This document shows, in pieces, positions 46,954-48,419 of a stretch of 64,000 nt of DNA (position 1 is its first letter; each line of letters begins with the position of its first letter). The DNA comes from Escherichia coli. Lineage in GTDB: Bacteria; Pseudomonadota; Gammaproteobacteria; Enterobacterales; Enterobacteriaceae. The stretch is taken from the NCBI RefSeq assembly GCF_003334385.1, contig NZ_QOWN01000004.1. One strand, written 5' to 3'. Under the pieces are notes generated by a model. That model made no database searches and was not told the DNA's origin. It saw only the letters and a list, made by a program, of their open reading frames with translations. Both the position numbers and the translations under genes were made by a program.

Positions 46954-46987
46954 TGTGATCCAGAGGCTGGGTGACAAACGTATAATT

Positions 46988-47087
46988 GCCTGATGCGCTT
47001 CGCTTATCAGGCCTACATAAGGCATTGCAACTGATTGAATGCTTGAGAATTTGTAGGCCGGATAAGGCGTTTACGCCGCATCCGGCA
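46988..47087. repeat. REP/BIME elements between yjeI and yjeJ
   Basis: gcctgatgcg...tcaggcc and gtaggccggataagg...gcatccggca palindromes. Confidence 0.8.
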
Positions 47088-47155
47088 TGACCAACGATCA
47101 CGTTATCAGTCATTTCAGGCTGGATGGCTCCAGCCTCGCATTAGCAAAGATGAGA

Positions 47156-48025
47156 TTATTTCGCCTGTGGTGCAGTTTTGCTGGTGGATTGAACACGTAA
47201 GTGATGCAGCGCGCGTAAGCATTGATCCTGGGTTAGCGGTTGGGCGTTATTCGCCGCTACGGTGCGAACATAGACCTGACATGGCACACCCGCGAGTTTT
47301 TTCAGTCGTGGGCTGAAATCAAGCATTCGGCGAGTGATCGCTTCTATTTCTTTACCCGGCGTTGCTTCACGCGTTTTCACCACTGCGCCGCTAAATTGTT
47401 CTTTGCCACTTTCATCTTTAAAGCGGTAAAGCACCGCCAGATAATGGTCGAACAAGTTATGTTTCCATTCCGGTTGGGAATAGGTGTCATATTCCAGATT
47501 GCCATTGTCCTGGCAGTCAACGTCGTATAACGGCAGGAAATCTAACAGTGAGGTAATACGTAATGCCAGTTCACGCATTTCCGCATTATTAATTGCATGA
47601 ATGATTGCTCGCGCCAGCATTTCAATCTGCAACTCATTGACGACTAACTCACATTTGCTACCGTCATGTAGCGTTAATACGAAGGTAAGATTTTCGCCTT
47701 GATTATCGGTAAGTTCCAGCGTGTTAACCCGACGATTAATATCGGCATTTTTAAGCTCATCAACCAGAATTTCTGGGATGTTTTCTGCCATTTTCTTAAT
47801 GACTTTATCGCGAGCTTGCTCATACTGAAGGTGTGCAGCAGCATCCAGTTTATGCTTTTGATGCAGACGACTTTCCAGCGCAATCAGCAGGTCGCGCAGT
47901 TCCATGACAGACATAAAGAACAACGATTCTTTATTGCGAGGTTCTTTAATTTTCAGCGCCAGTGCAATGAAATTATTACTCTTGCGAATAACACCGGTAT
48001 TAACACCCTTGATGCTTATGGCCAT
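47156..48025 (-). CDS. yjeJ: YjeJ, 289 aa, function unknown
   Basis: Full-length AT-rich ORF flanked by REP clusters. Confidence 0.85.
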   Translation of the reverse strand: MAISIKGVNTGVIRKSNNFIALALKIKEPRNKESLFFMSVMELRDLLIALESRLHQKHKLDAAAHLQYEQARDKVIKKMAENIPEILVDELKNADINRRVNTLELTDNQGENLTFVLTLHDGSKCELVVNELQIEMLARAIIHAINNAEMRELALRITSLLDFLPLYDVDCQDNGNLEYDTYSQPEWKHNLFDHYLAVLYRFKDESGKEQFSGAVVKTREATPGKEIEAITRRMLDFSPRLKKLAGVPCQVYVRTVAANNAQPLTQDQCLRALHHLRVQSTSKTAPQAK

Positions 48026-48287
48026 GTAGGTTCTCCCTAACCATTTCTCAATTAAATAATTAATTTTAATTTATAAGCCAGATAAATGGGCTTGGTAGTA
48101 ATAGTTGTTAAAATAACATAAATAGCCGTACTCACTCTATATAAACAGAAAAGAAAGGTTAATTATTGGTGTTAGCTATATAAAAAGTAACAACAGCAAT
48201 GCATATGAATAATTAAAGGTTATGCAACGGGCAAAGATTAAACTTCCCAGTTTAATGACAGGTTGCTGTACTTGCGTTTGTTGCTCT

Positions 48288-48387
48288 TGCCGGATGCAGC
48301 GTAAACGCCTTATCCGGCCTACAGTTCATTGCAAATCCATTCAATTTCAATGCACGATGTAGGCCTGATAAGCGTAGCGAATCAGGC
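48288..48387. repeat. REP/BIME elements between yjeJ and epmB
   Basis: tgccggatgcagcgtaaacgccttatccggcctac and gtaggcctgataagcg...atcaggc. Confidence 0.8.
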
Positions 48388-48419
48388 AATTTTAATGTTT
48401 AACTTCCCTGTTTAATCAG

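Follow-up and report, generated by a model that had tools for sequence, protein, structure and literature searches.

The gene yjeJ lies between yjeI and epmB in a 64,000-nucleotide stretch of Escherichia coli DNA (assembly GCF_003334385.1, contig NZ_QOWN01000004.1), referred to here as the window, and has a cluster of repetitive extragenic palindromic (REP) sequences on either side. Each cluster forms a bacterial interspersed mosaic element (BIME), here called BIME1 and BIME2. The window is K-12-like, with an identical match to K-12-type genomes that carry these annotations. An earlier reading of the sequence alone had given coordinates for both clusters and had proposed that they enclose a horizontally acquired cassette. 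The coordinates are exact, and each cluster is a REP pair of the BIME-1 type. The features on which the argument turns are the following, in window coordinates:

44479-46462: groES-groEL
46600-46953, plus strand: yjeI, a lipoprotein gene of the DUF4156 family, convergent with yjeJ and the conserved right-hand neighbour of its slot
46988-47087: BIME1, of BIME-1 type, with a z1 REP at 46988-47016 (GCCTGATGCGCTTCGCTTATCAGGCCTAC), an L-like linker at 47017-47052 (36 nt) and an inverted y REP at 47053-47087
47156-48025, minus strand: yjeJ, 289 aa, Pfam PF15922
48026-48237, minus strand: leader and promoter region of yjeJ, about 30% GC, conserved across Escherichia
48134-48162, minus strand: sigma-70 promoter of yjeJ, TTAACC-17-TAGAGT, reported in PMC3946193, its position located here
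48288-48387: BIME2, of BIME-1 type and the reverse of BIME1, with a y REP at 48288-48322, a linker at 48323-48358 (36 nt) and a z1 REP at 48359-48387
48420-49448, minus strand: epmB, encoding the elongation factor P (EF-P) beta-lysylation protein, the conserved left-hand neighbour of the slot
49490-50056, plus strand: efp

yjeJ is an old and constrained gene

The 289-aa open reading frame (ORF) expected between the REPs is present on the minus strand, and the sequence-only reading was right to see no recognisable domain in it. The sole match is to the protein's own Pfam family, PF15922 ('YjeJ-like'), over the full length of the family (residues 1-283, E 7.3e-175). For E. coli YjeJ and three divergent family members, NCBIfam returned no match, and PADLOC and PHROGs returned nothing with E below 0.005. 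The family is tiny and limited to Enterobacterales: 1.84 billion proteins yielded 97 representatives at 50% identity, of which many are fragments.

A cassette would be expected to come and go among strains of the species, but yjeJ does not: 5395 of 5426 complete E. coli genomes carry at least 80% of a yjeI-yjeJ-epmB query. The ORF is full-length in 99% of E. coli genomes, with an IS1 element interrupting it in at least one strain. A synteny scan with one genome per species returned 45 loci, 44 of them with both neighbours, and in all 44 a YjeJ homologue lies between epmB and yjeI. These loci represent more than 15 genera and are mostly REP-free; the genera include Escherichia, Citrobacter, Pseudocitrobacter, Kluyvera, Superficieibacter and Salmonella, together with Trabulsiella, Yokenella, Intestinirhabdus, Kosakonia, Phytobacter and Pluralibacter. 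Being universal in E. coli, syntenic across genera and often without REPs, yjeJ is not a recent insertion.

The gene is under purifying selection, with a ratio of nonsynonymous to synonymous substitution rates (dN/dS) of 0.04-0.18 in Escherichia, Citrobacter, Kluyvera and Trabulsiella, similar to that of epmB. In most Escherichia and Citrobacter pairs, yjeJ has a higher dS than the genes beside it. The divergence rate of YjeJ from genus to genus is about 3.8 times that of EpmB, with 40-75% identity where the neighbouring proteins retain 85-99%. YjeJ protein has been quantified in K-12 proteomics (PMC9508795), and the gene is listed as Nac-regulated (PMC7417836) and has served as a neutral site for a linked resistance marker (PMC10679819). 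A simple scan for promoters and terminators gave nothing beyond shuffle expectation. Overall, yjeJ is a genuine, old and expressed gene that is both constrained and fast to diverge, and its slot between epmB and yjeI is fixed.

Its composition is less extreme than had been claimed. To call the ORF markedly AT-rich was an overstatement, since its GC content is a moderate 45.2%, the fourth lowest among 48 window genes (z -1.6); the truly AT-rich part is the yjeJ-epmB spacer, at 30% GC without the BIME. GC content at third codon positions (GC3) is 45.2%, against 49-58% in the neighbours, which makes yjeJ atypical, but modestly so. GC3 falls below that of the neighbours in Escherichia, the Citrobacter freundii group, Salmonella, Kosakonia and Phytobacter, but not in C. 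sedlakii or Kluyvera, whose yjeJ copies reach 0.63-0.67. Universal conservation and host-like composition would together have spoken against acquisition; the first was found in E. coli, but the second is lacking in Escherichia, the C. freundii group and Salmonella.

Several further observations concern the slot and its records. Kosakonia sp. S29 and Phytobacter carry an additional gene, about 2.1 kb long, in the yjeJ-yjeI interval, showing that the slot accepts other cargo; from its length and sequence features at one of these loci, it looks like a methyl-accepting chemotaxis protein gene. Several Salmonella YjeJ entries in the AlphaFold database (AFDB) and GenBank are fragments or split ORFs. 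yjeJ DNA or protein also appears in records labelled Bacillus coahuilensis, a Bacteroidales metagenome-assembled genome, Chryseobacterium sp., Trichuris trichiura and Thelohanellus kitauei. The AFDB entries for the last two are A0A077ZBR0 and A0A0C2JF96, the Trichuris protein being fused to lysine 2,3-aminomutase (EpmB). These non-enterobacterial records almost certainly reflect contamination or mis-binning.

The BIMEs beside yjeJ

BIME-1 elements are made up of one z1 and one y REP, occur in single copy and have a long L linker that often holds an integration host factor (IHF) site (PMC3333891). Both elements beside yjeJ show the imperfect palindromes of 20-40 nt with a GTAG/CTAC end, the inverted z1 and y units (29 and 35 nt, respectively, in each), the single copy and the long linker of this class. 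They also resemble known BIME-1 elements (RIB/RIP) in their extragenic 3'-end location, their polymorphism between strains and the use of one of them as a target by IS621. They differ in that an IHF consensus is found in only one of the two linkers, that of BIME1, and there with one mismatch; BIME2 has no such match, and the background rate is 0.54 per kb. A repeat finder pairs BIME1 with BIME2 as inverted copies, through arms that are 83% (60 nt) and 93% (44 nt) complementary; their linkers agree at 20 of 36 positions. Each folds as RNA, on the strand shown, better than shuffled sequence (z -4.5; 0 of 200 shuffles equally good). Rfam yielded just sub-threshold naRNA4 matches, which are the REPs themselves.

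The two elements sit at gene ends. BIME1 lies where the 3' regions of the convergent genes yjeI and yjeJ meet, while BIME2 begins 32 nt past the epmB stop codon, in the 3' region of epmB and upstream of the yjeJ promoter. The 64-kb window contains five REP-bearing loci, and a rough estimate gives about 0.36 adjacent pairs of REP-bearing spacers expected by chance, so the pair flanking yjeJ is not statistically remarkable. Elsewhere in the window, a three-REP cluster (y, z2-like, y) occupies positions 41-200, and lone REP-like hairpins lie at 5808 and 18605.

The presence of the BIMEs varies independently of the gene. In a sequence type 131 (ST131) genome of phylogroup B2, both BIMEs are gone and yjeJ is intact, leaving spacers of 49 bp (yjeI-yjeJ) and 234 bp (yjeJ-epmB); strain PNUSAE019785 is missing BIME2 alone, again with yjeJ intact. 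Across an evenly spaced sample of ranked E. coli matches, about 59% of records have both elements, about 8% are without BIME2 and about 33% are without both. BIME1 was found in every other Escherichia lineage examined, E. albertii included, so its absence from B2 looks like a secondary deletion. BIME2 occurs in the cryptic clades and in E. whittamii, but E. albertii has none. In the genera outside Escherichia, no epmB-yjeJ spacer carries a REP, and REPs in the yjeJ-yjeI spacer are confined to some Citrobacter. These differing phylogenetic distributions indicate independent events. Both BIMEs are thus late, unstable and mutually independent additions to an existing gene order, and the forms that lack them look like deletions between short flanking repeats.

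This pattern bears directly on the proposal that the inverted BIMEs are the boundaries of an acquired, mobile yjeJ cassette inserted between yjeI and epmB. The inverted copies do flank the gene, the ORF and chiefly its upstream spacer are AT-rich, and the protein family is narrow; below-average GC, an AT-rich upstream region and a limited taxonomic range are features that yjeJ shares with recent islets. However, strains without one or both BIMEs keep yjeJ intact in the same place, as do many genera with no REP in either spacer, which refutes the claim that the REP bracket marks a cassette. Also contrary to the proposal, yjeJ is carried by 99.4% of complete E. coli genomes, BIME1 and BIME2 have separate distributions, and a search of E. 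coli genomes found no copy of a BIME-yjeJ-BIME unit at other sites. Unlike a recent islet, the gene is universal in the species and syntenic across genera, and no integrase, tRNA or target duplication bounds it. The cassette model therefore retains almost no probability. The BIMEs are ordinary elements unrelated to the origin of yjeJ, which is itself a real and constrained gene.

Smaller features of the two spacers are as follows:

46964-46970: left AGGCTGG copy of a 7-bp direct repeat, with its right copy at 47117-47123; the two bound a 153-bp stretch missing in B2 strains
47028-47040, minus strand: IHF-consensus-like site in the BIME1 linker, ATTCAATCAGTTG, one mismatch to WATCAANNNNTTR, weak evidence
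47117-47136: hairpin with an 8-bp stem, AGGCTGGA tggc TCCAGCCT, between the ends of yjeI and yjeJ
48238-48256: left copy of an imperfect direct repeat around the 160-bp BIME2 indel, resembling a decayed duplicate of the sequence just after epmB
48398-48416: right copy of the same repeat, 89% identical to 48238-48256 and abutting the epmB stop codon

The hairpin at 47117-47136 is conserved, also in strains without BIME1, and is followed by a T-run on neither strand. The imperfect 19-nt repeat at BIME2 seems to extend to about 30 nt, taking in the last codons and the stop of epmB. In E. albertii the epmB-yjeJ spacer seems to hold both copies of this duplication with no BIME between them; either BIME2 was cleanly excised or it was inserted into a duplication that already existed.

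IS621 (about 1.28 kb) is present in the yjeI-yjeJ spacer in 6 of 39 evenly sampled chromosomal records. At one such locus (L003) the element, at 1955-3233 of that record, interrupts the GGCCTAC tail of the BIME1 z1 REP precisely at its CT, equivalent to window position 47013/47014. IS621 is a bridge-RNA-guided element that targets REPs, and this insertion is consistent with that behaviour.

The start of yjeI differs between sources: the mechanical ORF begins at a GTG at 46567 (128 aa), and RefSeq begins at the ATG at 46600 (117 aa), which gives a lipoprotein-like signal (...LLMAGC). The spacers also appear in a study of amoxicillin evolution, in which Table 1 places six ampC amplicon starts in the yjeJ/epmB spacer (48026-48419) and one in the yjeI/yjeJ spacer; REPs go unmentioned in that study (PMC12625342). 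We found no repeat shared between the yjeJ-epmB spacer and the other ampC amplicon ends (frdA, yjeM) that could account for this recurrent boundary.

YjeJ in microcin-like export modules

Insight into the origin of yjeJ comes from its distant relatives. Nine divergent contexts were examined, in which YjeJ is 21-39% identical to E. coli YjeJ and to the other divergent members. In eight of them, covering seven genera and at least three chromosomal neighbourhoods, YjeJ is the last gene of a conserved export cluster. The cluster begins with one or more proteins of 86-122 aa, followed by an HlyD-type adaptor (about 428 aa), an ATP-binding cassette (ABC) exporter with a C39 peptidase (about 705 aa) and YjeJ. 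The gap between exporter and YjeJ is 9-30 nt, with a Shine-Dalgarno-like sequence before YjeJ wherever the junction was read. The small proteins carry a double-glycine leader (MKELTVFEMxxISGG or ...SGA) and then Gly/Ala-rich glycine zippers. The exporter fits models of peptide cleavage and export ABC proteins, and its nearest E. coli relative at the DNA level is the microcin exporter gene mchF; a Klebsiella exporter-plus-yjeJ segment compared with E. coli genomes matched mchF alone, at about 67% identity over about one quarter of the query.

The module is found directly beside yjeI-groEL, at the slot of E. coli yjeJ, in K. pneumoniae, K. quasipneumoniae, Entomohabitans and a Scandinavium-like genome, and elsewhere in Raoultella, Kosakonia radicincitans and Budvicia. 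Its occurrence in differing neighbourhoods indicates that YjeJ travels with the module. Within the module, mean identity is highest for the exporter (75%), followed by the adaptor (64%) and the toxin-like protein (49%); YjeJ, at 30%, is the most divergent component. YjeJ divergence follows that of the exporter (Spearman 0.83) and the adaptor (0.77), which argues that YjeJ is a stable component of the module. Its genes have a GC content of 0.38-0.48, against 0.53-0.58 in the host flanks. No small transmembrane immunity ORF conserved next to the toxin genes was found in the modules, which leaves YjeJ as their only conserved extra gene.

In a neighbour-joining tree (unbootstrapped and midpoint-rooted), the solo YjeJ proteins encoded next to epmB form one clade, and the module types fall outside it in basal positions. 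Two copies, one in a module and one of the solo type next to yjeI, coexist in one genome (L051), with a GerE-type regulator gene between them. Among the solo proteins, those of Citrobacter sp. NCU1 and Awk 4 stand apart: YjeI is 96-98% and EpmB 90-93% identical to those of other Citrobacter, but YjeJ is just about 40% identical and clusters with another solo subtype (Scandinavium-like, RIT691, Pluralibacter). Judged from these identities, this looks like an allele replacement at the same slot.

The modules share their architecture with the Caulobacter glycine-zipper system Cdz (cdzABCD-cdzI; PMC5380434). With Cdz and with class II microcin clusters (the MccV genes cvaC-cvi-cvaA-cvaB and MchF-type exporters) they have in common glycine-zipper proteins with double-glycine leaders, an HlyD-type adaptor and a C39 ABC exporter, and some have two glycine-zipper paralogues, comparable to CdzC/D. 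There are also differences. Of these genes the window holds yjeJ alone, the double-glycine substrate, exporter and adaptor being present only beside distant relatives; the immunity proteins of the known systems are small and membrane-bound, but the product of the fourth module gene is soluble and has a mass of 32 kDa; and YjeJ modules usually follow a chaperone-usher fimbrial operon. The fimbrial genes (usher, MrkD-like adhesin, fimbrial subunit) precede the module nearly always, even at different sites, which may point to a larger unit inherited together or to a toxin that, like Cdz, is associated with the cell surface. At the K. quasipneumoniae locus no glycine-zipper gene was picked up upstream, and a 95-aa ORF downstream of YjeJ has a double-glycine leader (MKQLTQHEMETVGGG) with a body that is not glycine-rich.

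Homologues also occur on plasmids. A full-length yjeJ is found on its own on Serratia plasmids (18-57 kb), close to genes for replication and partition and with no exporter link. The E. coli plasmid pLAU-OXA4 and about nine similar plasmids (28-35 kb) have the order parF-parG-yjeJ, with the homologue 27 nt after parG; this 163-aa protein comprises only the two N-terminal units of YjeJ and is 20% identical to E. coli YjeJ and about 32% to the Serratia plasmid form. The plasmid copies show that the YjeJ family moves on mobile DNA. Thus, of the earlier idea of horizontal origin, the recent REP-bounded insertion falls away, but an origin on mobile DNA is plausible in view of the low-GC export modules, the plasmid copies and the discordant Citrobacter allele.

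Origin and role of the solo protein

The account that we consider probable as a whole joins these strands. The BIMEs are ordinary BIME-1 elements at the usual 3' ends of transcription units, unconnected with the arrival of yjeJ; they appear to have arisen within Escherichia, and deletions between the short direct repeats around them appear to have removed them repeatedly. By analogy with known BIMEs, they may provide local 3'-end structures for the epmB, yjeI and yjeJ transcripts, and possibly sites for IHF or gyrase and landing pads for IS621. yjeJ, with its own promoter and its fixed epmB-yjeI slot across Enterobacteriaceae, would derive from a family that is part of a four-part bacteriocin-type module of glycine-zipper protein(s), HlyD adaptor, C39 ABC exporter and YjeJ. 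The solo proteins of E. coli, Citrobacter, Kluyvera and others would then be one derived clade whose toxin and exporter genes were lost. Gene context and the tree make it most likely that E. coli yjeJ is what survives of such a module, now orphaned.

The solo protein may have been kept as a cytoplasmic, immunity-like binding protein that acts against glycine-zipper toxins of neighbouring bacteria. Self-protection is favoured because it alone would continue to serve a cell whose toxin and exporter had been lost, and the lack of a conserved small membrane ORF beside the toxin genes and of catalytic-looking invariant residues in YjeJ is in keeping with it, but it is a guess, to be held tentatively. 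The broader version of the idea is possible but somewhat doubtful: YjeJ proteins in general would be the soluble cytoplasmic immunity component of Enterobacterales glycine-zipper systems, and E. coli yjeJ a species-wide orphan immunity gene against toxins of gut neighbours such as Klebsiella, Raoultella and Kosakonia. Like the orphan immunity genes of bacteriocin, contact-dependent inhibition (CDI) and Rhs systems, yjeJ is a lone, constrained and fast-diverging gene from a toxin module, and an extra paralogue lies beside a full module in one genome. Orphan immunity genes are, however, usually strain-variable, whereas yjeJ is core in E. coli; it also differs from them in showing no co-variation with the toxin and in that its immunity function is putative.

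Several points weigh against the bacteriocin account. The connection between YjeJ and bacteriocins is putative, drawn from gene context and the tree. Transmembrane helices are a feature of CdzI and of the known class II microcin immunity proteins that YjeJ lacks. YjeJ and the toxin-like protein do not co-vary (Spearman 0.02), and no toxin-immunity co-diversification is seen. No relics of exporter, adaptor, toxin or GerE genes were found in the window or at any solo-type locus, so the choice between loss from a module and recruitment into one depends on an unbootstrapped, midpoint-rooted tree. Some lineages can do without yjeJ: the representatives of S. enterica diarizonae (an in-frame stop at codon 98) and S. 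enterica arizonae (a frameshift after about 75 codons) carry it as a pseudogene. The exporter-free plasmid copies keep a DNA-related role alive as an alternative. Finally, matches to the predicted fold point weakly to nucleic-acid-binding proteins of the Pur-alpha and Whirly types.

The fold is modelled with high confidence by AlphaFold, with a mean predicted local distance difference test score (pLDDT) of 93.8 and a predicted template modelling score (pTM) of 0.88, and comprises three units, each a beta-sheet followed by helices. Foldseek with this model returned family members and a few Pseudomonas proteins whose annotations give no function. A profile search seeded with the most divergent YjeJ reached 18 proteins only, all from Enterobacterales, and none of these Pseudomonas look-alikes. 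The best match in the PDB is Pur-alpha, weakly, with other Whirly-class proteins also listed, and the predicted architecture is thus weakly Pur-alpha/Whirly-like; proteins of that class are built of repeated beta-beta-beta-beta-alpha units forming a PUR-type domain, to which the modelled units may correspond. At the sequence level, the family profile matched nothing among all PDB sequences even at E 10. The protein is predicted to be soluble, with a mass of 32 kDa, no transmembrane helix (maximum 19-aa hydropathy 1.23) and a calculated isoelectric point (pI) of 7.7; the label 'inner membrane protein' used in Salmonella is therefore unsupported. Its nearly invariant residues, L43, P84, Q133, Y167 and W187, include none that looks catalytic.

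This fold is the starting point for the alternative in which YjeJ is an old Enterobacteriaceae binder of single-stranded DNA or RNA, Pur-alpha/Whirly-like, with a regulatory or DNA-maintenance role. Export modules and plasmid partition regions would have recruited copies later, and the AT-richness would reflect low expression and weak codon bias. The three modelled beta-sheet-plus-helix units, the short homologue directly behind parF-parG on E. coli plasmids and the GerE-type regulator between the two YjeJ paralogues in L051 would suit such a role. So would the elevated dS of yjeJ relative to its neighbours, as for a weakly expressed gene, and the fact that YjeJ divergence follows the exporter and not the toxin. 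However, the three units show no internal repeats at the sequence level (probability of at most 3% in hhalign comparisons of sub-alignments), and the pI is not strongly basic. The exporter link in eight of nine divergent contexts, the basal position of module types relative to the solo clade and the roughly fourfold faster divergence of YjeJ than of EpmB between genera also speak against it. We regard this alternative as unlikely.

YjeJ could instead be a cytoplasmic accessory of export, for instance by holding the aggregation-prone precursor of the glycine-zipper protein or by acting together with the ABC exporter, and the solo copy a leftover with an unrelated role. In the modules yjeJ follows the exporter gene directly, probably as part of one operon; its divergence is correlated with that of exporter and adaptor, and the protein is predicted to be soluble, all of which fits this idea. 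Strong purifying selection in thousands of E. coli genomes that have neither exporter nor substrate would be unexpected, and the idea is improbable. Below it in probability come the cassette model discussed above and, last, the view that yjeJ is a decaying, non-functional remnant and in effect a pseudogene: the Salmonella arizonae and diarizonae pseudogenes, the IS1 interruption and the neutral-site use could be cited for it, but the low dN/dS, the full-length ORF in 99% of E. coli genomes, the detected protein and the mapped promoter leave it scarcely any room.

The locus is in itself ordinary, consisting of textbook BIME-1 elements and an annotated gene of unknown function, and the functional lead is modestly interesting. 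It offers a worked example in which REP brackets are not island borders, since the same gene occurs with two, one or no BIMEs. In the literature searched, no paper was found that links YjeJ to microcins or to such export modules, of which the YjeJ family is the constant fourth gene across a widespread, microcin-like group. For E. coli K-12, yjeJ is an uncharacterised core gene that now has a functional hypothesis that is cheap to test. If YjeJ does protect against glycine-zipper toxins, it would represent a new type of immunity protein and would explain why E. coli keeps yjeJ.

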